Origin: Cellvibrionaceae bacterium
GTDB taxonomy: Bacteria; Pseudomonadota; Gammaproteobacteria; Pseudomonadales; Cellvibrionaceae
Reading direction: 5' to 3'
DNA: 13,634 bases
Assembly (NCBI GenBank): GCA_019634095.1
Contig: JAHQVY010000357.1
Coordinates: forward strand, 1 to 13,634
Below the pieces are notes generated by a model, which saw only the letters and a list, made by a program, of their open reading frames with translations, was not told where the DNA came from and ran no database searches. Below are positions 160 through 13,525 of this stretch, in pieces (the stretch's first letter is position 1; the number at the start of each line of letters is the position of its first letter). The position numbers were made by a program, and so were the translations under genes.

Positions 160-348
160 ATATACCCGTAGCGTTTGATATTTAGGCCTTATGAGCACAG
201 CCCTAAGTGCCCTTGGCGGTGTTGCTCCGCCTTAAAAAGAATGGCTATTCTGCATTGCCCTAATACCTCACACCTCTGTGAGTAACGCCTTGCCAAGAAC
301 CTTAATTGATGCACTCCTACACCTAAATCTCAAACGCTTTGGGTATAT
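160..348 (+). mobile_element. MITE-like non-coding repeat element, copy A (~189 bp) with 8-bp terminal inverted repeats ATATACCC...GGGTATAT
   Basis: About 90% identical to 13275-13468 in the same orientation. The termini are reverse complements (160-167 atataccc; 341-348 gggtatat). It contains conserved hairpins GGCGG-tgttgct-CCGCC (215-231) and CTCACA-cctc-TGTGAG (267-282). It has no ORF and is inserted between the adaptor gene end and the ATPase gene. Confidence 0.6.
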
Positions 349-400
349 CAAACACTAGGGGTATACATTTGAAAATTCTGTTGGAACAGGACATAAATTT

Positions 401-1173: not shown

Positions 1174-3597
1174 ATGATGACGCACTTAATTTTAGATATG
1201 GCTTATTCGCTGCGCTTGTTAAGAAAATCACCCAGCTTTACTGCCTTGTGTGTATTGGTGTTGGCCGGTGGTTTGGCGGTGAGTTTATTTACTTTCGCTT
1301 TTTTGTATACCTTAACTAACAAGCCCCTGCCACTGCCGGATCAAAGTTCGCTGTACCGCGCTTCGCGGGATTGGTATGGCGAAGCCTTTGGTGAAAGCCG
1401 CTATTTGCCCGCCTACGAGGCCGCAGCCATTCGCCAGCAGGCCACGGTATTCAAAGAGCACGGTATCTGGCAAAACAAAACTGTGTACCTGTCTCAAGGT
1501 GAAAATAATTTGGTGGTGTCGGCGGTGCGCAGCACAGCGAATATTTTCGATATCAGTCGCAGCGGGCCATTGCTAGGGCGTTTGTTGCATCCGCGCGACA
1601 GCCAGCCCGACCAAACGCCGGTGGCGGTGATTAGCTATGCCATCTGGCAAAGCCAGTTTGCCGGCAATGACGAGGTGATTGGCAAACAGATTTATATTAA
1701 CGACGTCGCCACAGAAATTGTTGGTGTGATGCCAAAGGGCTACCGTTTTCCGATTTCCCACGATCTTTGGTTGCCCATTTCCCAGCAGCTACTCCACCCA
1801 CTCAGCACTCAGCGCGAAAAAGTGGAGTTGTTTGGCCGTTTAAAACCGGGAGTGTCGCGGGAACAGGCGCAGCAGCAGGTTTTGTCCCTGGCCGAGCAGT
1901 CATTTTCCCAGCGTGCAGAAACCTGGCCAGGCGTGGAGTTGATTCGAGCCAAGGTGGATATTTTTCAGCGTTTTGATGTAAGCACCGAGATGAAAATATT
2001 TTCCTACGCCATGAACATGCTTGCGTTTTTTATTCTGGTTTTGGCGGCAATTAATGTTGGCAATTTATTGTTTGTGCGGGCCATTCAACGCAATAGAGAG
2101 TCGGCCATTCGCATTGCCCTAGGCGCCCCGCAATGGCGCTTGATTAGTCAGTTGATGTGGGAGGGGGTAATAATTACTGTGCTCGGCACAAGCATCGCGG
2201 TGTTTATTTCCAGTGTGCTGCTCCATGCCGTGAATATTTATTTCCGCTCATTAATGAATAACGAACTGGCGTTTTGGTATATCTGGGAAATGGATGTCAC
2301 GGTGTTTAGTGCAGCCCTGGCGTTTGCCGTGGCGACAATTGTCATCGCCTGTTTTTGGCCCGCATTCCGCGCCGCTCGGCAAGATTTTAATAGGGTACTG
2401 CGCGACGGAACCCGCGGCGCCCAAAGCAAACACGCTGGGTTTATGTCGCGCCTTTTAGTCACCCTGCAAATTTCGGCCATTTCCATCATTATGGTGCTCG
2501 GTGCGGTCATCTCCACCAAGGTGCACAATCTTACCGACATGGACCTTGGTTACGATGTGAAAGGAATCAGTTTTTCGATTGTTGAATTGCCCGAGAGCGC
2601 CTACCCCGAAAATACCGACAAATCCTTGTTTTTCGAGCGGCTGCAGCGCGCGCTGTTTAACAGCCAGGCGTTTTCCGGTGCGACGGTGCGCTTTAATCAC
2701 AGCCAATTGCCGGTTGCTGTTGGTGGCGTGGAATATCAGCGCGACGCCGATAAACCCAAGGTACAGGTGTTTAGCATGATTGGTAGCAGCGAATTTATGG
2801 GGCCGACGCTTGTGGCAGGGCGTGAATTAGATAGTCGAGATGGCAGCGGTCGGGCGCCCGCAGTGCTAGTCAGTAGCTCCATGGCCAAGCGTTATTGGCC
2901 CAACGATTCACCCATAGACAAACAAATTGAAGTGAGCTTGCAAGCTAAAGTATTGCGGCTAAATATTGTTGGCGTGGTATCTAACACTACAAATAATCCC
3001 TTCCATAAAAAAGAAAGTTATCACGAAATTTACCTGTCTGGCCTTCAGTTTCCAATGCAGCGGGGCACGGTGTTCTTTGAAAAGACCTCTGCGGGAGTAC
3101 TGGTGGAAGATAATTTTTTTCGCGCCATCAACGCCATCGACAGTAAGCTGGATATTCTCACCATTGAAGACTGGGAGCTGGAAGCTGACGCGATTGGCAA
3201 GATGACGGTGACTTTCCGCGATACCATTGTGATTTGCGGCGTATTTTCACTGATTCTGGCTATGAGCGGTATTTACGGAATCACCGCATTTTCGGTGGAA
3301 AAGCGCTCCCAGGAGGTGGGGGTGAGGCGCGCCCTGGGGGCCACCGACCGTAAAATCATGGGGCTGTTTGTAAGGCAGGGGAGTCGTCAGTTGATTATTG
3401 GTCTGCTGTGTGGGTGCCTGATTTCGGGGCTGATGATGTTTGGCCTCTCCAGCATTATGGCCATTCCCTCTGTGGTTTACCTGGTGATTTACGCGTCGGT
3501 GATAGTCTCTTTGACGTTGATTGTGTTGGCTGCGGTGATTATTCCCGCGCGCCGGGCGGTTAATTTGCTGCCAGCTGTTGCACTGCGTTACGAATAG
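1174..3597 (+). CDS. ABC transporter permease with duplicated FtsX/MacB-type domains (YbbP-like, 807 aa)
   Basis: A GGAGG RBS (1166-1170) precedes ATGATG at 1174. The layout is an N-terminal TM helix, a large periplasmic domain, three TM helices, then a second periplasmic domain and a C-terminal four-helix FtsX bundle, which is the ~800-aa YbbP architecture. The ORF-track start at 1069 is an in-frame upstream extension without an RBS, so 1174 was chosen. Confidence 0.88.
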   Translation: MMTHLILDMAYSLRLLRKSPSFTALCVLVLAGGLAVSLFTFAFLYTLTNKPLPLPDQSSLYRASRDWYGEAFGESRYLPAYEAAAIRQQATVFKEHGIWQNKTVYLSQGENNLVVSAVRSTANIFDISRSGPLLGRLLHPRDSQPDQTPVAVISYAIWQSQFAGNDEVIGKQIYINDVATEIVGVMPKGYRFPISHDLWLPISQQLLHPLSTQREKVELFGRLKPGVSREQAQQQVLSLAEQSFSQRAETWPGVELIRAKVDIFQRFDVSTEMKIFSYAMNMLAFFILVLAAINVGNLLFVRAIQRNRESAIRIALGAPQWRLISQLMWEGVIITVLGTSIAVFISSVLLHAVNIYFRSLMNNELAFWYIWEMDVTVFSAALAFAVATIVIACFWPAFRAARQDFNRVLRDGTRGAQSKHAGFMSRLLVTLQISAISIIMVLGAVISTKVHNLTDMDLGYDVKGISFSIVELPESAYPENTDKSLFFERLQRALFNSQAFSGATVRFNHSQLPVAVGGVEYQRDADKPKVQVFSMIGSSEFMGPTLVAGRELDSRDGSGRAPAVLVSSSMAKRYWPNDSPIDKQIEVSLQAKVLRLNIVGVVSNTTNNPFHKKESYHEIYLSGLQFPMQRGTVFFEKTSAGVLVEDNFFRAINAIDSKLDILTIEDWELEADAIGKMTVTFRDTIVICGVFSLILAMSGIYGITAFSVEKRSQEVGVRRALGATDRKIMGLFVRQGSRQLIIGLLCGCLISGLMMFGLSSIMAIPSVVYLVIYASVIVSLTLIVLAAVIIPARRAVNLLPAVALRYE

Positions 3598-3682: not shown

Positions 3683-3724
3683 TCTATAAAAATTACAGGT
3701 AATATTACCTGTAATTTTTATAGA
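3683..3724. promoter_or_regulatory. 42-bp perfect palindrome TCTATAAAAATTACAGGTAAT|ATTACCTGTAATTTTTATAGA; candidate operator overlapping a promoter, and/or bidirectional terminator hairpin
   Basis: Read directly. Both 21-nt arms are exact reverse complements with no spacer. It ends 33 bp before the ATG of the first gene of the PspA/flotillin block. It contains TATAAA/TTTATA -10-like hexamers, and a possible -35 TTGATC at 3679-3684. The ACAGGTA/TACCTGT stem, flanked by A- and T-runs, could also terminate the upstream permease transcript. Confidence 0.6.
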
Positions 3725-3756: not shown

Positions 3757-4410
3757 ATGAACAAGAAAACATCCGCACATTATCAGCGAGAGTATCGACG
3801 CCGGTTGCGTGAGCAGGGCTTGGTAAAGAAAGAAGTTTGGATAAACCAAGACCACGCGAAAACCCTGCATCGGCTCGAGTTGCAACTTCGTCAACCCGGC
3901 AGCGAATCGTTGCCTGCTAGCAAAGGCGCCGAGCTGACGCAGGCGGGCCTCCTCGCTACCTGGACCACGCAGAGTCTGTTTGACGCCCTCGCCGCGCAGC
4001 CAGATTTTAGCGCCAATAACACCTTGGAGCTTATCGATGATGCCCAGCCCTCCATACACCTTGATATGAAGCAGTATGGCGACCTGCCGGTTTATTTGGC
4101 GGTGTGTGGCGAGCAAATTATTGTAGAGTCGCTGCTGTGGCCCCTCAGCGAGGTTAAGAACTCGGCCCAATTTAATGAGATGCTTTTAAAAACGCACAAG
4201 TTTATACCGCTTTCCAGCGTCGGTTTGGAAACCTTTGAAAACGGCGCCACTTACTATTATATGTTCGGTGCCCTCAGTGCCGGCTCGTTGCTGGCGAATA
4301 TTATTTTTGAAATTGACTGCCTGGGGAGCAACGTTATTCAAGCCACGCAGGCTTTCTCCGAGTTTTTGAAAAGTGCCATACCGCTCGATACCGATGTGGC
4401 AGCGCCGTGA
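3757..4410 (+). CDS. DUF2170-family protein (E. coli YjfI-like) with a ~80-aa N-terminal basic, ribbon-helix-helix-like extension
   Basis: Residues ~85-217 (…MKQYGDLPVYLAVCGEQIIVESLLWPLS…KFIPLSSVGLETFENGATYYYMFGALSAGSLLANIIFEI…) match the YjfI/DUF2170 pattern as I remember it (…MNDYGDLQINI…MPLSSVGIS…YYIVFGALS…). The N-terminus is KTSAHYQREYRRRLREQG, followed by KEVWINQDHAKTLHRL, which is a beta-strand plus helix of RHH type. It is the first ATG after an in-frame stop. It has no clear SD sequence, which is a weakness. Confidence 0.7.
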   Translation: MNKKTSAHYQREYRRRLREQGLVKKEVWINQDHAKTLHRLELQLRQPGSESLPASKGAELTQAGLLATWTTQSLFDALAAQPDFSANNTLELIDDAQPSIHLDMKQYGDLPVYLAVCGEQIIVESLLWPLSEVKNSAQFNEMLLKTHKFIPLSSVGLETFENGATYYYMFGALSAGSLLANIIFEIDCLGSNVIQATQAFSEFLKSAIPLDTDVAAP

Positions 4411-5117
4411 GTAATTGGGCAAAAGTATTTAGCTTACTCAATGCACACCGGGTGAGTTACGCAGAAAATGTCGAGGAAAACCCGGCCTTTGCGTTGATCA
4501 GCGCCGAGCTTAAGCAATCGCTTAGCCAGTTGAGCACAATGCAACAGGCGTTTAAGGCATTGCAATCGCAGCAGAAATTGGCGCGAGCCAAAGTCAGTCA
4601 ACTGGCCGCAAGTATCGAAGAATACGAAGGGTACGCGGCCAGCGCGCTTAATAAGCAGCAGTCCGAATTAGCGTTAGAAGTGGCGGCGAAAATCGCCGAA
4701 TTCGAAAGCCAACGGAAAACCGAGCAAAACGCCATACAGCAGCGACAAGGCGATTTAAGCTTGCTGCAGCAGAGCATGCCTCTGTGCGAGCAGCATCACA
4801 AACGCTTAAAGCATCAGCTGGACACCCTCAAAGCGGTCGTCAATGTGTTACACGCGCAAGCCACCGTCGCGGTTCGCGAAGGGGGGGAGGTGCCTAAGCA
4901 CCGCACCGCTTTAGATGCCCTAAAAAAAATCCGCGACAAAAATGCGGCCGAGCAGGCCCAGTTGCAAGCGGCGAGCGATTTAGCGGCCGATGTGGATGCG
5001 CAGTCGCTGCGGGAAAAGCTAAAGGCGGCGGGCATTATTGATAGTGGCCACAGCGCCGAAACGGTGCTGCAACGCATAGCGGCGCAAGTGAATGCCGCGA
5101 GTGAACCTGGCAATTAA
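4407..5117 (+). CDS. PspA/IM30-family protein (phage-shock protein A / Vipp1 / ESCRT-III superfamily; YjfJ-like)
   Basis: Its GTG start overlaps the upstream TGA (GTGA), so the two genes are translationally coupled. The N-terminus is NWAKVFSLLNAHRVSYAENVEENPAFALISAELKQSL, which resembles PspA [35 protein letters not shown]. The remainder is a ~230-aa Q/A/E/L-rich coiled coil typical of the family. Confidence 0.75.
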   Translation: MSNWAKVFSLLNAHRVSYAENVEENPAFALISAELKQSLSQLSTMQQAFKALQSQQKLARAKVSQLAASIEEYEGYAASALNKQQSELALEVAAKIAEFESQRKTEQNAIQQRQGDLSLLQQSMPLCEQHHKRLKHQLDTLKAVVNVLHAQATVAVREGGEVPKHRTALDALKKIRDKNAAEQAQLQAASDLAADVDAQSLREKLKAAGIIDSGHSAETVLQRIAAQVNAASEPGN

Positions 5118-5158
5118 AGCCGATAATTAAAACCGATAATTAAAGCCGGCAATTAAAC
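5107..5158. repeat. Four imperfect tandem copies of a 12-13-nt unit C(C/G)G(A/G)(T/C)AATTAAA(G/A)C spanning the PspA-like stop codon and the intergenic region
   Basis: Read directly: ctggcaattaaagc / cgataattaaaac / cgataattaaagc / cggcaattaaac. The first unit encodes the C-terminal PGN residues and the stop codon. Confidence 0.55.
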
Positions 5159-5175: not shown

Positions 5176-5820
5176 ATGGAAACATTTTTAGCAACCATTA
5201 CTGCGTTTCCAACTGTAATTTTTACCAGTTTATTTATTTTTTGTATTTTTTATTGGCTAATGGCACTTATCGGTTTGGTGGATTTAGACGTTCCCGGTGC
5301 GGAGGTGCCTGATGCCGCTGGTGATAGTATGAGTAGCCTCAGCGCTTTTACCGGGTTAATGGTAAAGCTCGGCCTGCAAGGGGTGCCGTTTCCGCTAACG
5401 CTGTCGCTTATTACTGTAATGGGGTGGGCCTGTTGTTATTTTTCATGTTTATTGTTGCTGCCATTTATTGCTACGGGGCTTACTAAATATTTATTGGGTA
5501 TTCCGGTTTTTTTGCTGTCATTTTTTGCCGCTATTTATATTACTTCAAAAATCATTAATCCCTTGCGGCCAATGTTTCTCTCTGCGGAGCAAAGAGCCGA
5601 ACACACGCTGATTGGTAAAACTGCCACGGTGCGCAGCTCGCGCGTTGACAGCGAATTTGGCGAGGCTAATGTAAAAAGCGCCGGTGCCGAACTCATTATT
5701 AACGTGCGCGCTTGCCAGGAGGCGGTTTTTGAAAAAGGCGATCGAGTGGTTTTGCTGGAACATGTGAAGCCGGGTAATTTTTACAAAGTTATTTCTGAAG
5801 AAGAATTTAACCTAAACTAA
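5176..5820 (+). CDS. YqiJ-like inner-membrane protein with a C-terminal NfeD-type OB-fold domain (flotillin partner)
   Basis: RBS AAGGGAG with 8-nt spacing. The protein has ~4 N-terminal TM helices, then LIGKTATVRSS…GEANVKSAGAELIINVRAC…FEKGDRVVLLEHVKPGNFYKV, an NfeD/YqiJ-type beta-barrel tail. It sits immediately upstream of an SPFH/flotillin gene, the canonical NfeD-SPFH operon arrangement. Confidence 0.7.
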   Translation: METFLATITAFPTVIFTSLFIFCIFYWLMALIGLVDLDVPGAEVPDAAGDSMSSLSAFTGLMVKLGLQGVPFPLTLSLITVMGWACCYFSCLLLLPFIATGLTKYLLGIPVFLLSFFAAIYITSKIINPLRPMFLSAEQRAEHTLIGKTATVRSSRVDSEFGEANVKSAGAELIINVRACQEAVFEKGDRVVLLEHVKPGNFYKVISEEEFNLN

Positions 5821-5832
5821 TTTGTTGGATTG

Positions 5833-5861
5833 TTGCGAGGATGTTCGCAGTAGATTCTAAT
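5833..5861 (+). promoter_or_regulatory. Candidate sigma70-type promoter TTGCGA-N17-TCTAAT upstream of the flotillin gene
   Basis: Hexamers read directly: -35 at 5833-5838 and -10 at 5856-5861, about 44 bp upstream of the GTG start. It lies inside the segment that recurs inverted at 13486-13525. It is weak by itself and was not scored. Confidence 0.3.
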
Positions 5862-5879
5862 GGTTAATTTAGGTTTAAA
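5840..5879 (-). repeat. Inverted copy of the segment at 13486-13525 (15/15 + 18/25 matching positions)
   Basis: The reverse complement of 5840-5879 is ttaaacctaaattaa+ccattagaatctactgcgaacatcc. The segment at 13486-13525 is ttaaacctaaattaa+tcagttggatctactgcggacgccc. Confidence 0.45.
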
Positions 5880-5905: not shown

Positions 5906-7876
5906 GTGAACCAAGTTGATTATATTGCTTATTTAACCGGGATTGCTGTAGTAATTGGTGCGCTTTTTGTGATTGCATTGGTTATTATTTCGATATTTAA
6001 AGCGTTTTATGTGAAGGTAGAGCAGGGTGTTGCTTTGATAAAAAATGATACCGGTAATACACCCAAGGTGGTGTTTACCGGCACCTGGATTATTCCGGTG
6101 ATTCATAAAAAAGAGTTGATGCGTATTTCCCTGATTACCATGGAAGTGGACCGTCGCGGCAAAGACGGTTTGATTTGTGCCGACAATATGCGAGCCGATA
6201 TTACCGTGGCTTTTTACTTGCGGGTGAATGAAACCCCCGAGGATGTGCTGCAAGTCGCCAAATCTTTGGGTGCCTCGCGGGCCTCGGATAAAGATGCAGT
6301 GCACGAGTTGTTCAATGCTAAATTTTCTGAAGCCCTAAAAACAGTGGGCAAGCAAATAGAATTTGTAAAGCTATTTGAAGATAGGCAAACCTTCCGTGAA
6401 AAAATTAAACGCGTGATTGGCGATGATCTCAACGGTTATATTCTCGAAGATGTGGCGATTGATTACCTGGAGCAAACACCCAAATCGTCCCTCGATCCCA
6501 GTAATATTCTCGATTCCCAAGGCATTCGCAAAATTACCGAACTTACCGCAACCCAGAATGTGCGCACCAACGAGTTAGAGCGCGATGAAGAGTTGGCGAT
6601 TAAAAAGAAGAATGTCGAAACGACTGAAGCCAGGCTGGAGTTAGAGCGGCAACAAGCCGATGCCGAGGCGCGTCAGCAACGGGAGATTCTGAGTATCCAA
6701 GCCAGAGAGGAAGCCGAAACCAAGCGCATTCAAGAGGAAGAGCGCAAAAAATCTGAGGAAACCGCCATTGCGGTTGAGCAAGAATTGTCGGTGCAGCGAG
6801 AAAATCAACAGCGAGAAGTGGAAGTGGCGCAGCAAAATCGACAGCGCGCAGTGGCCATTGAAGTAGAGCGGGTGAGCAAAGCGCGCGATTTAGAAATTGT
6901 CGCCCGGGAGCGCGAGGTGGAATTGCAGCGAATTGGCGCAGAAAAAGATATCGAAAAAGAGCGCAAAGAAATTGCCAATGTTATTCGCGAGCGGGTAACC
7001 GTGGATAAATCTGTGGCGGTGGAAGAGGAAAAAATTAAAGAAGTGCGCGAAATCTCTGAAGCCGATCGCGCCAAACAAGCCGCAGTATTGCAAGCCGAGG
7101 CCGATGCCGAAACCGAAAAGGTGAAGCAGGTGCAGCAGGCTGAAGCAGAGGGCTTAGCCGCGAAATACCGCGCTGAAGAAGTGGTAACGATGGCTCAAGC
7201 TAAGTTGGAAGCGGCGGCAAAAGATGCCGATGCCAAGAAAAAACTCGCCGAAGGGGTGGAGGCGGAAGAGGCGGCCATGGGAATCGCCGAAGCCAAGGTC
7301 AGAGAAGCCCAGGCGATGGCCTTAGAAAAAGAAGGTTTGGCGGAAGCCAAAGTGATTACTTCCAAAGGCGAAGCCAATGCCACAGCCTTGGAAAAAGCCG
7401 GCACTGCCGAAGCCAATGTGCTGGCATTTAAAGGTGAGGCGCAAGCCAAGGCGGTGCGTGACACCGGGTTATCGGAAGCCGACGTAAGCCGGGAAAAACT
7501 CCGCGCGGAAGCGGAAGGGCTAGTCGAAAAATTCGAGGCGATGAGCAGCTTGAGCGGCGATGCACGCGACCACGAAGAATTTCGTATGTCTTTGGAAACG
7601 GCCTTGGAAGAGGCCTTGGCTTCCATAGAAGCGGGCAAAGTGGTTGCCAAGGAAAATGCCGAAGTACTGGCTACCGCTTTGCAAAATTCCAATATCGATA
7701 TTGTTGGTGGGGAAGAGCATTTCTTTAACAACTTCGCTAAATCTTTGTCGATTGGCAAAGCCATAGATGGTTTGGCAGCAAAGAGCGGCACTGTGGAAGC
7801 CTTGCTGCATAAATTTATGTCGATGCAAAAACCTTCAGAAAAAAGCAATGGTGCGGCTGTTGATCCCCAGCACTAG
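5906..7876 (+). CDS. SPFH/band-7 flotillin-like protein (YqiK-like), 656 aa
   Basis: GTG start with an AAGGAG RBS (5893-5898). It has an N-terminal TM helix and an SPFH domain (KVVFTGTWIIPVIHKKELMRISLITMEV…DNMRADITVAFYLRVNE…). This is followed by ~350 aa of E/A/K/R/Q-rich coiled coil with flotillin-type EA repeats (AEAKV…AEANV…AEADV). The antisense Ala/Ser-rich ORF 7195-7848 is its compositional shadow. Confidence 0.88.
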   Translation: MNQVDYIAYLTGIAVVIGALFVIALVIISIFKAFYVKVEQGVALIKNDTGNTPKVVFTGTWIIPVIHKKELMRISLITMEVDRRGKDGLICADNMRADITVAFYLRVNETPEDVLQVAKSLGASRASDKDAVHELFNAKFSEALKTVGKQIEFVKLFEDRQTFREKIKRVIGDDLNGYILEDVAIDYLEQTPKSSLDPSNILDSQGIRKITELTATQNVRTNELERDEELAIKKKNVETTEARLELERQQADAEARQQREILSIQAREEAETKRIQEEERKKSEETAIAVEQELSVQRENQQREVEVAQQNRQRAVAIEVERVSKARDLEIVAREREVELQRIGAEKDIEKERKEIANVIRERVTVDKSVAVEEEKIKEVREISEADRAKQAAVLQAEADAETEKVKQVQQAEAEGLAAKYRAEEVVTMAQAKLEAAAKDADAKKKLAEGVEAEEAAMGIAEAKVREAQAMALEKEGLAEAKVITSKGEANATALEKAGTAEANVLAFKGEAQAKAVRDTGLSEADVSREKLRAEAEGLVEKFEAMSSLSGDARDHEEFRMSLETALEEALASIEAGKVVAKENAEVLATALQNSNIDIVGGEEHFFNNFAKSLSIGKAIDGLAAKSGTVEALLHKFMSMQKPSEKSNGAAVDPQH

Positions 7877-10900: not shown

Positions 10901-13259
10901 AAAAATTCTCAGCCAGCTGATCCCCGCCCTGGCGCAGGCTGGGCATTTAAAGTACGACCCGCTATGTCGGGGCTTGGCCCAGGTTTTTTGGGCAAATATC
11001 GAAAAGATTGCCTCGCAACTGGCGAGTTTGCGACTCAGCTACAGTACCTGGCCGGAACGGGCACAATCGGCGGCAAGGCTGGCGAATTTATTGTCCAGTT
11101 TGGAGGCGAAACAGCAGTTGGCCACAGAAATTGAAGTCGCGCTTACTGAATTTGTTAAACATCACCCAATTGTTGCCACGCCTCTGGTGTTAAAACGCAG
11201 TGCCGCTTACTTGGTGGATGAACTGGGCAGCGAAACTATCCGTTTTGTGTGCAGCAAACATGGAATGGAACTCGCCGAAGCGCTGAAGCGCACCTTAGAC
11301 CAAGACAGCTGGCGCCATTTTCAAGTGGCCTTAGAGCGCATGTTAGGCTGGCCGGCGGAACGCTGGCAGCTGAGTGAAAGTTGGTTTAAAGCCTTAGTTG
11401 AGAATAAGTCGCTGGCTCACCTACAACACTATATTCCCGAAGCGGTGGCAATTGTTAACACCGAAAACCGCTTAGAGCGCGAACTGTCCCAGGCGGAATT
11501 GGAGCTGCACATCGACGGTTTACTCAGCGAGCACTCGCGTATTGAAAACCGCTGCTTGGCTTTGTCTATCGACGATTTTCTTACCCGCTATTCAGACCAT
11601 TGCGGCGAATTTATTCCCGAATATCATCGCTACCAAGCACTGCGCAAACAGACGATTCAAGAAAAGCGCGAACAATTGCGTTTAGAAGAGCTGAAACCGC
11701 GCCCGCTGAGCTCGTTTGTACGCAACCGTTTAATTAATGAAAGCTACCTGCCGATTATTGGCGATAATTTAGCGAAACAAATGGGCACCATTGGCGATAA
11801 CAAGCGCAGCGATTTAATGGGCTTGTTAATGATGATATCGCCGCCGGGTTACGGGAAAACCACTTTGATGGAATATGTGGCCGACCGCTTGGGTTTGATT
11901 TTTATGAAAATCAACTGCCCCAGCCTGGGGCATGATGTGCTGTCGCTCGACCCCAGCCAAGCGCCCAACGCGACGGCGCAACAAGAGTTAAAAAAGCTTA
12001 ATCTGGCGCTGGAAATGGGCAATAACGTAATGTTGTACCTCGATGATATACAGCATACCGACCCAGAATTTCTGCAAAAATTTATCTCTTTGTGTGATGG
12101 CACGCGGCGTATTGAGGGAGTGTGGCAAGGCCAATCGCGCACCTATGATATGCGCGGTAAAAAGTTTTGTGTGGTGATGGCGGGTAACCCCTACACTGAA
12201 TCTGGCGAGCTGTTTAAGGTACCCGATATGTTAGCCAACCGCGCCGACATTTATAATTTGGGGGATATTTTAGGGGGGATGGATGAGCAATTCGCCCTGA
12301 GCTATATCGAAAATAGTTTAACCTCTAACCCGGTGTTGGCGCCGCTGGCCACTCGCGATATGCAAGACACGTATTTATTAATTGCTATGGCCGAGGGCAA
12401 AGAGGTGGCCAGCTCAGATTTAAAACATCAATACAGTGCCGCGGAAGTTAAAGAGATTTGCGATGTGCTGAAAAAACTATTTGTGATTCGCGATATTGTG
12501 CTAAAAATTAATCAGCAGTATATCGAGTCTGCCGCCCAAGATGAGCAGAATCGGGTTGAACCGCCGTTTAAGCTCCAGGGCAGCTACCGCAATATGAATA
12601 AAATGGCAGAGAAGGTAGCGGCGGTGCTGAACGCGGCGGAATTGCAGCAGCTGATTGACGATCATTATCGCGGTGAATCGCAATTGCTGACCCAGGGTTC
12701 TGAAGAAAACCTCCTTAAGTTGGCCGAATTGCGCGGCACTCTTAGCCATGCGCAACAACAACGCTGGCAGGACATTAAACAGCGCTTTGTGCGCAACCAA
12801 AAACTGGGGGGTAAAAATAGCGATGCTGCAAGCCAAGTGGTGGCGCAGCTGGGGGACATTGCCGGTGTTTTAACGGCGTTACAGCACAATATGCAGGCGG
12901 GTGTGGAAAACGCTTTGCATACACCACAGCCCGCCGCGAAAAGCGATACCGACAGCGTTATTCTCGGCGCTTTAGACAAAATTCAAGGCTCTATTAGCGC
13001 ATCGTTGGCGAAGGTGCAAGTGGTGAATCAACCGGTGCCGGGTATGGATAAAGTGCTGCGCGTATTGGCGAACACCCTTGAGCAAAGTATTTTTCCGCTG
13101 ATGAAAAACATGGATAAAAAGTTTGAAATAGATTTGAGTACTCACAATAAAATAAGCGATCTGTTTCAACAGCTTAAAAATTTAGAAATGCAAATAAAAA
13201 TGGAAAACGCAGAGAGTACGGTGAGTGTGAGAGAAAACGTGGTGAAGAATAAACCTTAA
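7953..13259 (+). CDS. Giant (1768 aa) multidomain protein with a C-terminal-third AAA+ ATPase module; uncharacterised family
   Basis: A single uninterrupted ORF, with an AGGAG/AAGGAA RBS region upstream of the ATG. AAA+ motifs: Walker A SPPGYGKTTL (aa ~1296-1305, nt ~11838-11867), Walker B VMLYLDDIQH (aa ~1360-1367), and sensor-1-like VVMAGNP (aa ~1407-1413). The N-terminal ~450 aa are mixed alpha/beta. Residues ~500-850 are Q/L/E-rich coiled coil. Residues ~850-1290 are helical. About 350 aa follow the ATPase. There is no sigma54-activator GAFTGA motif and no N-terminal P-loop. Confidence 0.85.
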   Translation: MADTASEPPSSIDSAVAEGGAYDVLRRRLNEQGQALNEQVKNINSARLAEFGQSDLKIATRTRVRTANNCVARDIVQVGELLLFSYNVFIGLKKATQINDVFAVFKLQHSGDQYELLSVDIDTSFLNDSRFQKDFNELYHYYKKTHLKETRVVNGLLLMGFQISEREEDIRVFRWSLSADGTVLKYIDNRGERDLVLPPSFDFDWQEATREDTVQGRYPHVNILDTLFVETINGDLTIKIEDNTEDGQGIYREAVEDGNQSIDDAAFCYARLGGLILLKVLPYKEKHYRHFVYNTLTEQVLRLDAIASSCVQLPEDHGIIFPGGYFLQDGEHKDFAGDVAGMRFQRKIRSPNGEDFLYVFYEPISGTSVLLAYNLIEKRLQNPLYCHGYALGDDGKIVMFVAEEEATRVHPMQIWQTPFVGDDYASQQPKSQSFFSRIGNASLVRGISDVFSICRSVNNQSVTLKVYEELAGQSKKIFDNHYWIDSDECHGIANLIRSIAETAELTIDEFQKVQSIQQQSNQALEKAKQQQQALLLEIRNSAWQQALDYVNALGDLKKLRGHLASIRQLRYIDVAQIALLESELLQSQEDLNTRTAEFLSQDKAFEPYQETIANLDKAVEKADSNISLSPLLEQMDQLAEGLDMLTDMMSTLQVADVNVRTQIIDATTSVYAKLNQSRALAKHKQKNLGSKEATAQFAAQFKLFSQSVTNALGLAATPEECDKQMSRLLVQLEDLESQFGEFEQFLGDIISKREEVYESFEAHKQQLLDAQQRKAQNIFDAAERALASIERRVNKFKDMDALNTYLGSDALVLKINDFVEQLRQLNASVQAEDVSSRLKGIKDQGLRLLRDKAEIYEGEGNVIKLGPRHKFSVNTQSLDLTIIPRQQDLYLHLTGTDFFETINDSPLSQLSAYWDVAHESESPFFCRAEFLAASVMQQAQTAPQQPLMDLLKSENALLERVRDYAAPRYKEGYTKGIHDHDAAKILSQLIPALAQAGHLKYDPLCRGLAQVFWANIEKIASQLASLRLSYSTWPERAQSAARLANLLSSLEAKQQLATEIEVALTEFVKHHPIVATPLVLKRSAAYLVDELGSETIRFVCSKHGMELAEALKRTLDQDSWRHFQVALERMLGWPAERWQLSESWFKALVENKSLAHLQHYIPEAVAIVNTENRLERELSQAELELHIDGLLSEHSRIENRCLALSIDDFLTRYSDHCGEFIPEYHRYQALRKQTIQEKREQLRLEELKPRPLSSFVRNRLINESYLPIIGDNLAKQMGTIGDNKRSDLMGLLMMISPPGYGKTTLMEYVADRLGLIFMKINCPSLGHDVLSLDPSQAPNATAQQELKKLNLALEMGNNVMLYLDDIQHTDPEFLQKFISLCDGTRRIEGVWQGQSRTYDMRGKKFCVVMAGNPYTESGELFKVPDMLANRADIYNLGDILGGMDEQFALSYIENSLTSNPVLAPLATRDMQDTYLLIAMAEGKEVASSDLKHQYSAAEVKEICDVLKKLFVIRDIVLKINQQYIESAAQDEQNRVEPPFKLQGSYRNMNKMAEKVAAVLNAAELQQLIDDHYRGESQLLTQGSEENLLKLAELRGTLSHAQQQRWQDIKQRFVRNQKLGGKNSDAASQVVAQLGDIAGVLTALQHNMQAGVENALHTPQPAAKSDTDSVILGALDKIQGSISASLAKVQVVNQPVPGMDKVLRVLANTLEQSIFPLMKNMDKKFEIDLSTHNKISDLFQQLKNLEMQIKMENAESTVSVRENVVKNKP

Positions 13260-13274
13260 GGTGAAGCGCACTTA

Positions 13275-13468
13275 ATATATACCCAAAACACTTGTGATTT
13301 AGGTCTCATGAGCACGACCCTAAGTGCCCTTGGCGGTGTTGCTCCGCCTTAAATAGAATGGCTATTCTGCGTTGCCCTATTACCTCACATCCCTGTGAGT
13401 ACCGCCTTGCCAAGAACAAAAATTGGCGCACGCCTAACACCTAAATCTCAAACGCTTTGGGTATATAT
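13275..13468 (+). mobile_element. MITE-like non-coding repeat element, copy B (~194 bp) with perfect 10-bp terminal inverted repeats ATATATACCC...GGGTATATAT
   Basis: About 90% identical to 160-348. The termini 13275-13284 and 13459-13468 are exact reverse complements. The GGCGG-tgttgct-CCGCC hairpin is conserved (13332-13348). In the second hairpin, CTCACA-tccc-TGTGAG (13384-13399), the stem is preserved but the loop differs from copy A. Confidence 0.6.
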
Positions 13469-13485: not shown

Positions 13486-13525
13486 TTAAACCTAAATTAA
13501 TCAGTTGGATCTACTGCGGACGCCC
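13486..13525 (+). repeat. Partner of the inverted repeat at 5840-5879
   Basis: See feature 5840-5879. It lies just downstream of MITE copy B, presumably in the upstream region of the next gene, which is outside the window. Confidence 0.45.

Follow-up and report, generated by a model that had tools for sequence, protein, structure and literature searches.

A probable IS630-derived MITE in two direct copies on a Cellvibrionaceae contig and its relatives in other gammaproteobacterial genomes

The locus and its two non-coding repeats

The window, by which we mean the whole 13,634-nucleotide stretch of DNA analysed here, is a contig of a Cellvibrionaceae bacterium. It opens on the end of a gene (stop codon at 98-100), from which a gap of 300 nt leads to the start of an ABC ATPase gene (401-1162), followed by a gene for a MacB/FtsX-type permease (stop at 3597). 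Beyond these lies a block that runs from a DUF2170 gene (start at 3757) through a PspA-family gene (stop at 5117) to a DUF3686/AAA ATPase gene (stop at 13259). One copy of a non-coding repeat, copy A, sits inside the 300-nt gap, and the second, copy B, starts 19 nt past the stop of the DUF3686 gene; the last 169 nt of the contig, after copy B, contain no open frame. GC content stays between 0.43 and 0.52 throughout the window with no compositional break. Rfam and tRNA scans of the whole window were empty (Rfam 15, E up to 1), and the 13.6 kb hold no transposase gene.

The original prediction placed copy A between an adaptor gene and its ATPase. The position in a gap between genes holds, but the identity of a MacA-type adaptor is unconfirmed, as the upstream 32-codon fragment had no match in Pfam or PDB and could not be assigned to the MacA/HlyD family. 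The flotillin label given to the ORF at 5906-7876 (656 aa) has no Pfam support either, no flotillin domain being found in it. This ORF and that at 5176-5820, both in the PspA/DUF3686 block, are without any Pfam match, and homologous unannotated ORFs occupy the same positions in two relatives. Three further sequence features were seen in this part of the window. A perfect 42-nt palindrome with 21-nt arms and no spacer (3683-3724, 100% complementary, TCTATAAAAATTACAGGTAAT/ATTACCTGTAATTTTTATAGA) lies between the permease stop and the DUF2170 start; it may serve the PspA-type operon as an operator or else as a terminator in both directions. A 13-nt unit, AATTAAAGCCGAT, is repeated head-to-tail at least three times at 5112-5157, between the PspA-family stop and the ORF that starts at 5176. 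A second short repeat of ~36-40 nt occurs in inverted orientation at 5843-5878 and 13486-13521 (31/36 identical), 28 nt upstream of ORF 5906 and 21 nt after copy B, respectively; it contains ACCTAAAT, which is like the core of the terminal repeat described below, and it was absent from all 112 fetched loci.

Two same-orientation repeats had been noted near 160-348 and 13275-13468. They are real and far above chance, and their limits could be refined to those in Table 1. Global alignment of the two copies gave 160 identical columns out of 184 (87%), so that the ~90% identity first reported was slightly high. When the flanks were included in the alignment, similarity began and ended sharply at the element boundaries, the 60 nt on either side showing 16/60 and 15/60 matches (~25%), which is the chance level. 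The 24-nt terminus of the family described below occurs three times in the window at up to three mismatches, against 0.00 expected from 200 shuffles, and a profile of the family found exactly two full members, which are strongly polar (107-111 bits in one orientation versus 40-43 in the other), together with a right-end fragment of 16-18 nt next to copy A. Neither copy contains a credible ORF, as had been stated from the outset; the longest chance ORF is 46 aa.

Table 1. Positions of the two repeats, their parts and an adjoining fragment in the window
Feature	Position	Strand	Evidence
Copy A, probable MITE, 183 nt, TACCC...GGGTA	163..345	+	nhmmer family profile, E 2.5e-33 on +, 1.2e-12 on -
Copy B, probable MITE, 184 nt	13280..13463	+	family profile, E 1.7e-34
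Putative TA target-site duplication left of copy A	161..162	.	flank logo of 159 termini
Putative TA target-site duplication right of copy A	346..347	.	flank logo and sequence
Putative TA target-site duplication left of copy B	13278..13279	.	flank logo and sequence
Putative TA target-site duplication right of copy B	13464..13465	.	flank logo and sequence
Left 24-nt terminal inverted repeat of copy A, TACCCGTAGCGTTTGATATTTAGG	163..186	+	1 mismatch to family consensus
Right 24-nt terminal inverted repeat of copy A	322..345	-	0 mismatches to consensus
Left terminal inverted repeat of copy B, degenerate, TACCCAAAACACTTGTGATTTAGG	13280..13303	+	4 mismatches to consensus
Right terminal inverted repeat of copy B	13440..13463	-	0 mismatches to consensus
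~26-28-nt insertion private to the contig's subfamily	258..285 (A), ~13375-13402 (B)	+	family alignment columns filled only by copies A and B
16-nt right-end fragment of such an element, TCAAACACTAGGGGTA, then TA at 364-365, abutting copy A	348..363	+	repeat search, profile search

Inverted termini bound each copy, as originally described, but they are longer than the 8 and 10 bp then assigned to them: each comprises 24-27 nt, with 89% complementarity over 27 nt. Nor do the elements end where they were first drawn (ATATACCC/ATATATACCC). The true ends read TACCC...GGGTA with the TA duplication outside them, and the outer ATA or ATATA is target DNA, namely the duplicated TA and the neighbouring target base. 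This inclusion of target DNA explains why the earlier termini differed in length between the two copies. The right terminal repeat is better conserved than the left, both across the family and in the window, where the right ends of copies A and B are identical at 30 of 30 positions and the left ends differ at 6 of 24. Given the four mismatches in its left repeat, copy B may perhaps no longer be mobile. The flanks predicted for the sites before insertion are TAATCGCCAA-TA-TCAAACAC for copy A and GCGCACTTAATA-TA-TATCCGCTGG for copy B.

The 16-nt fragment listed in Table 1 follows immediately on the right-hand TA of copy A and is 90% complementary to the left repeat of that copy. By profile alone it is weak (E 3.6 with the full-family profile, at positions 143-160, and E 0.33 with a profile of the terminal repeat only), and the far side of copy A holds no further part of an older element. 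The fragment may have been left by an earlier insertion or have arisen in an aberrant event.

A family of TA-flanked elements and its partner insertion sequence

The original prediction proposed a search for further copies and a comparison of the termini at their boundaries. The terminus pattern ACCCNNAGCGTTTGANATTTAGG matched at least 90 genome blocks, in 17 species-representative metagenome-assembled genomes (MAGs) among the matches listed, and the 24-nt terminal inverted repeat TACCCnnAGCGTTTGAGATTTAGG is found at ~160 termini across these 17 species-level gammaproteobacterial MAGs, again among the matches listed. Exilibacterium sp. Spart_141 accounts for 38 of the listed blocks; further carriers among the matches listed are a Cellvibrionaceae MAG, a Porticoccaceae MAG, Candidatus Endobugula, a Pseudomonadales MAG, Chromatiales, Chromatiaceae and Thiohalomonadales MAGs and several unclassified Gammaproteobacteria. 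With up to five mismatches allowed, the matches listed gave 163 termini, including the four in the window, and 50 plus/minus pairs. Leaving out the two pairs of the window and one false pair (2.8 kb of host genes between two solo ends), there are at least 47 complete elements of 69-282 nt outside the window, plus one of 681 nt. Neither of the two outcomes named beforehand as refuting the prediction was seen: among the matches listed, dozens of elements spread over 17 other genomes have these termini, so that the element is confined neither to copies A and B nor to duplicated 5' regions, and the termini are conserved exactly at the boundaries of these other copies as well as at the ends of an IS630-family insertion sequence (IS), described below. 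In 43 aligned elements the outer columns of the terminal repeat are invariant or at least 90% conserved.

Element lengths have modes near 157, 172 and 205 nt among the matches listed. Copies within single other genomes are up to 96-99% identical, which indicates recent amplification. The window copies, two on a 13.6-kb contig of their host, are each other's nearest relatives and at most 69% identical to any other member among the matches listed. As the core 21-mer of their subfamily (CCTTGGCGGTGTTGCTCCGCC) is absent from the genome, metagenome and viral collections, this exact subfamily is known only from these two copies on this contig. Copy A had no match in plasmids, where the family consensus gave only a 19-nt match at chance level (E=4, a Vibrio plasmid), and the terminus pattern had no match in viral contigs. 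No paper came up when the literature was searched by text with the terminal sequences, and a model is lacking in Rfam; the family appears to be undescribed, yet it is an ordinary kind of element. [quoted passage not shown]

Two variants of the family were seen in addition to the complete elements. About a dozen solo units of 26 nt (TACCCAAAGCGTTTGAGATTTAGGTA), each flanked by TA, occur in loci L002, L005, L012, L015, L030, L038, L056, L070, L071, L072 and L088. In a subfamily from Pseudomonadales MT5bin.1 (L018, L027, L042, L058 and L078), the right arm contains 14-nt tandem repeats (TGCCATRAACAACT) in varying number, which account for element lengths of 172-240 nt.

The flanks of the family are highly regular. 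Among the matches listed, the three bases outside ACCC (positions -1 to -3) are T, A and T in 153-154 of 159 termini, position -4 is A (93) or C (45) in 138 of the 159, and TA is present on both sides in 43-44 of 48-49 element pairs. A direct repeat longer than 2 bp fits at no boundary offset. The simplest reading of these flank statistics is a 2-bp TA target duplication at a symmetric (A/C)TA(T/G) site, with the element itself running TACCC...GGGTA, although a TATA target with duplication of AT would fit them equally well. TA flanks match the TA duplication of IS630/Tc1-mariner elements (PMC2170065). An orthologous empty site was not found among the 90 fetched loci (all-against-all blastn, no shared segment of at least 280 nt); the nearest relative of the host is ~60% identical at the protein level.

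A transposase gene between matched ends was found in none of 90 genome blocks, which share no long repeats. Remnants of a partner IS are present in MITE-bearing MAGs (L040, L043 and L079). Two of these, L079 and L043, come from different MAGs and share the terminus and ~75 nt next to it, the reverse strand of which reads ...FFKKIxxYxDEITSLMxGxFExxYT with the stop inside the repeat; by inspection, 7 of 14 codon differences in this peptide stretch are synonymous. A protein search with the 59-aa C-terminal peptide of L043 gave no match, nor did tblastn against plasmids. Scanning metagenome contigs with the DNA of the conserved C-terminus reached 13 loci, 11 of which carry this end, and among them was an intact IS of 1,130 bp (contig L104, 1017-2146), identical over its whole length to 285-1414 of contig L103, where its flanks are different. 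It is flanked by TA on both sides in both contigs, which are unrelated to the host of the window. Its single ORF of 344 aa (L104, 1093-2127) contains the Pfam domains DDE_3 (6.8e-32) and HTH_33 and scores 204.8 bits against the NCBIfam model NF033545 for IS630-family transposases (cut-off 100). Among the annotated plasmid-borne IS630 transposases searched, none exceeds 45% identity to this one, the closest being an IS630-family transposase on plasmid pALVIN01 of Allochromatium vinosum (44.5% identity), whose IS ends likewise begin TATACC.

The left end of the partner IS is TACCCATAGCGATTGAGAATTAGG and its right end, as reverse complement, TACCCGTAGCGATTGAGATTTAGG; at L104 the ends read TACCC(A/G)TAGCGATTGAGA(A/T)TTAGG. 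MITE ends match this end at 93% over 30 nt, and only these outer ~30 nt are common to the partner IS and the MITEs. The left arm of the MITEs continues AGGC(C/T)T like the left end of the IS, and the right arm AGGTGT like its right end, indicating that MITEs and IS have the same polarity. The same IS end was found, in differing flanks, in nine more contigs (95-99 nt aligned, 97-100% identity), most of which break inside the IS; this points to a multi-copy, recently active IS. Outside each of the 11 partner IS ends comes TA, with T or G next.

IS1595 was considered as the parent and rejected. In L079 a frameshifted IS1595-family transposase abuts a MITE-type terminus, but the ends of intact relatives are unrelated to it (P0121, P0124 and P0167 end in ATGCCTCTGCATTTAACTCAG). 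The IS1595 element of L079 (6386-7170) keeps its own end, ATGCCTCGGCACTTGACTCAG, near 7150, and homology to the transposase extends only to residue ~205, the point at which the IS630-type element begins with its right end; one element has thus truncated another, rather than given rise to it. As is reported for RUP (PMC2229807), MITE and IS630-type elements seem to insert beside other mobile DNA as well as into it. On its other side, the IS630-type end in L079 is abutted by a complete MITE, with one TA in common.

Taken together, these data make it very probable that both repeats are MITEs derived from, and presumably mobilised in trans by, an IS630-family (Tc1/mariner-type) IS, and they bear out the original prediction of a MITE with terminal inverted repeats in two direct copies. 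In their plan and putative mechanism they are classic bacterial MITEs, elements shorter than 200 bp that have terminal repeats and TA at their ends and give a long stem-loop transcript (PMC2229807). Copies A and B, at 183 and 184 nt, are well below the ~300 bp taken as the upper size of a MITE, carry no transposase gene, have the conserved terminal repeats at their boundaries and are flanked by TA; as expected of IS630/Tc1-mariner elements, the duplication read from the flanks is of TA at a TA target, and the terminal repeats are those of an IS that encodes an IS630-family DDE transposase. For ISY100, the transposase is the sole protein needed and binds the 24-bp repeats through its N-terminal helix-turn-helix domain, insertion is almost exclusively at TA, which is duplicated, and mini-elements with 30 bp from each end move as well as the full IS (PMC2170065). 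By analogy, the N-terminal helix-turn-helix domain of the partner transposase would bind the 24-nt repeats and the DDE domain would excise the MITE, which would reinsert at TA, with a preference for (A/C)TA(T/G), and leave TA duplicated on each side. One copy would have landed in the intergenic gap ahead of the ABC ATPase gene and the other directly behind the DUF3686 ATPase gene, where two relatives continue into a rhomboid gene within 0-12 nt. The interior of the element has no gene and is a near-complete palindrome, so that a read-through transcript is predicted to fold into a hairpin of ~180 nt. The two copies may also affect expression of the neighbouring genes.

The predicted hairpin and other readings of the repeats

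On both strands, the predicted folds of copies A and B are much stronger than those of shuffled sequence (z -6.5 to -7.3). The predicted consensus over 43 elements of the family is one long end-to-end hairpin, and 40 pairs are predicted from 23 cleaner elements that represent at least 10 species-level genomes. In 20 of these 40 pairs both sides have changed with pairing kept, some pairs occurring in three types. Within a 24-pair core, 94% of cells are paired, versus 26-49% when partners are slid by 1-3 columns, and the covariation observed was reached by 0 of 500 shuffles, although common descent of the copies makes these counts overstate the number of independent events. The need of both ends to fit one transposase can also account for pairs within the 24-nt repeat. 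However, the arms pair out to ~67 nt from either end, while complementarity between the two ends of the partner IS is lost after ~24 nt, so that something besides transposase binding keeps the arms complementary. This may be either selection on the fold or arm-to-arm template switching, a process that can homogenise the arms of a quasi-palindrome without selection. We regard it as doubtful that the whole-length hairpin, and not only its 24-nt ends, is under selection and that the folded single strand (RNA or DNA) is functional. If so, the hairpin might be a processing or insulation site inside operons, for example at the junction of the adaptor-like gene and the ABC genes, or else an intermediate needed for efficient mobilisation, and the family would be a structured module on IS630 ends.

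The original prediction drew attention to two local hairpins. Both exist in both copies as described, hairpin 1 (GGCGG-TGTTGCT-CCGCC) at 215-231 and 13332-13348 and hairpin 2 (CTCACA-loop-TGTGAG) at 267-282 and 13384-13399, with loops CCTC in copy A and TCCC in copy B, but neither is conserved across the family. In the consensus of the family, as in the minimum-energy fold predicted for copy A, the bases of hairpin 1 are paired with the other arm. Hairpin 2 is predicted in the minimum-energy folds of both copies and lies inside the 26-28-nt insertion that the family alignment shows only in copies A and B; two sequences that have the stem in common give no sign of selection on it. The pattern had been taken to hint at a structured RNA or a protein-recognition hairpin; the empty Rfam search and the fact that the family does not keep these hairpins speak against this.

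A strong fold, and compensatory changes well past the 24 nt shared with the IS, would also be expected if the element were primarily a host-selected structured RNA or recognition hairpin (a regulator, terminator or stabiliser) whose transposon-like ends are secondary. This we consider improbable. Relative to the right neighbour, orientation is the same in 20 cases and opposite in 19, and relative to the left neighbour 29 and 14, a weak bias (crude ORF calls, matches listed); elements occur between co-directional, convergent and divergent neighbours among the matches listed. Such near-random orientation in every gene arrangement makes a fixed cis-regulatory role less likely. Scans for promoters and terminators gave nothing consistent, signals in copies A and B staying within shuffle expectation: copy A has no sigma-70-like promoter and copy B one weak 9/12 match, no more than shuffles give. 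A structured RNA would further have to contend with the empty Rfam search and with template switching as another source of arm complementarity. Long hairpins are, moreover, general in bacterial MITEs (PMC2229807). All 48 complete elements checked among the matches listed (48/48) lie outside ORFs of at least 150 codons.

Much the same inverted hairpin doublets, solo units and intergenic location are seen in REPINs, and a REPIN/REP-type palindromic repeat moved by a RAYT (an IS200/IS605-like Y1 transposase) was weighed as an alternative. The inverted doublets and the dozen or so 26-nt solo units are reminiscent of REPIN doublets and REP singlets, and some termini contain GTAG. However, REPINs insert without duplicating the target and rely on a Y1 (HUH) transposase, whereas the TA flanks of this family are invariable and its termini are those of a DDE IS of the IS630 family. 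GTAG is not conserved, AAAG and ATAG being equally common (positions 6-7 are AA, GT or AT), and the solo units would fit deletion of the whole MITE interior, from TTTAGGT in the left repeat to TTTGGGT in the right end. Neither a RAYT gene with these repeats nor insertions lacking TA flanks were seen, and we consider a REPIN origin very improbable.

We give equally little credence to copies A and B being the ends of a 13.3-kb composite transposon that brought in the ABC pump and the PspA/DUF3686 block. In its favour, the outermost repeats, on the left in copy A and on the right in copy B, do form a matched inverted pair (32 nt, 84%), and the ABC genes are not adjacent to the block in two relatives. 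In these, an Alteromonadaceae genome and Exilibacterium tricleocarpae, the DUF2170-PspA-hypotheticals-DUF3686 block is conserved; the bracketed 12.9 kb is thus not a conserved unit. But the block is chromosomal and syntenic in these relatives, and goes on beyond the site of copy B to a rhomboid gene, which DUF3686 reaches after 12 nt or with a 4-nt overlap. Copy A splits what appears to be a single transporter operon, so that the left boundary of a composite element would cut an operon. The even base composition of the window also speaks against this reading, the copies are 13% diverged, and their 2-bp TA flanks are uninformative. Deletion or inversion of the interval by recombination between the copies had been proposed as well. 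As the direct copies share uninterrupted identity of 36 and 30 nt, RecA-mediated deletion of the 12.9 kb is conceivable. Inversion is unlikely, since direct repeats can give deletion but inversion needs inverted homology, which is here limited to the imperfect termini of 24-32 nt.

The remaining alternative, named with the original prediction, is that the repeats are duplicated promoter/5'-UTR regions of paralogous genes and not mobile DNA; copy A does lie upstream of the gene start at 401 and only two copies of the exact subfamily are known, but copy B lies downstream of a gene with no ORF to follow, the flanking genes are unrelated, promoter matches are absent or at shuffle level, and the dozens of elements with these termini in 17 other genomes have neighbours in all arrangements (among the matches listed), which leaves this reading with next to no probability.

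An IS630-derived MITE explains, for annotation, two otherwise puzzling conserved non-coding blocks, and relatives of the element are scattered through many uncultured marine gammaproteobacteria, in genomes labelled Cellvibrionaceae, Porticoccaceae, Chromatiales/Chromatiaceae, Thiohalomonadales and Pseudomonadales. Contigs of these bacteria break at the repeat: many family termini, and nearly all copies of the partner IS, lie at contig ends. Insertions inside operon-like gene strings offer sites for measuring the effect of a ~180-nt hairpin on polycistronic expression. To a mobile-DNA specialist none of this is surprising; of some value are the identification of a partner IS, the wide range of hosts and a hairpin that covariation supports.

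Comparison with known systems

The partner IS resembles ISY100 and other IS630 elements in being ~1 kb long, with one transposase (N-terminal helix-turn-helix and DDE_3), TA duplication and imperfect 24-nt repeats (PMC2170065); the window elements differ from these in having no transposase. RUP of pneumococcus, which is mobilised by IS630-Spn1, is like the window MITE a non-coding, intergenic, multi-copy element of ~100-200 bp that inserts at TA and whose terminal repeats resemble those of an IS630-family IS (PMC2229807). RUP was assigned to its partner by repeat similarity and the TA target (PMC2229807), the same two arguments as are used here, and in the 2008 review it was the one bacterial MITE family with a nameable autonomous partner (PMC2229807). 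It differs in its Firmicutes host, its unrelated sequence and its repeats of ~9 bp, as against 24 nt here, and the window family, unlike RUP, spans several gammaproteobacterial orders.

The Correia/NEMIS elements of Neisseria have the consensus TATAGYGGATTAAC..., to which the window termini (TATACCCnnAGCG...) are unrelated, and the likeness is architectural only. These elements have TA flanks, ends that read TATA... and repeats of ~24-26 bp, and they share the long RNA hairpins, sizes of 100-155 bp and length variants arising from internal insertions (PMC2229807). Co-transcribed Correia RNA is a substrate of RNase III (PMC2229807). IHF sites and promoters directed outward are present in Correia elements, whereas the window copies have no consensus promoter inside or at their ends. 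For Correia no partner transposase was described in the 2008 review (PMC2229807), in contrast to the window family, for which one was found. Overall, the window element is closest in its logic to RUP/IS630-Spn1 and in its architecture to Correia, and has its sequence in common with neither.
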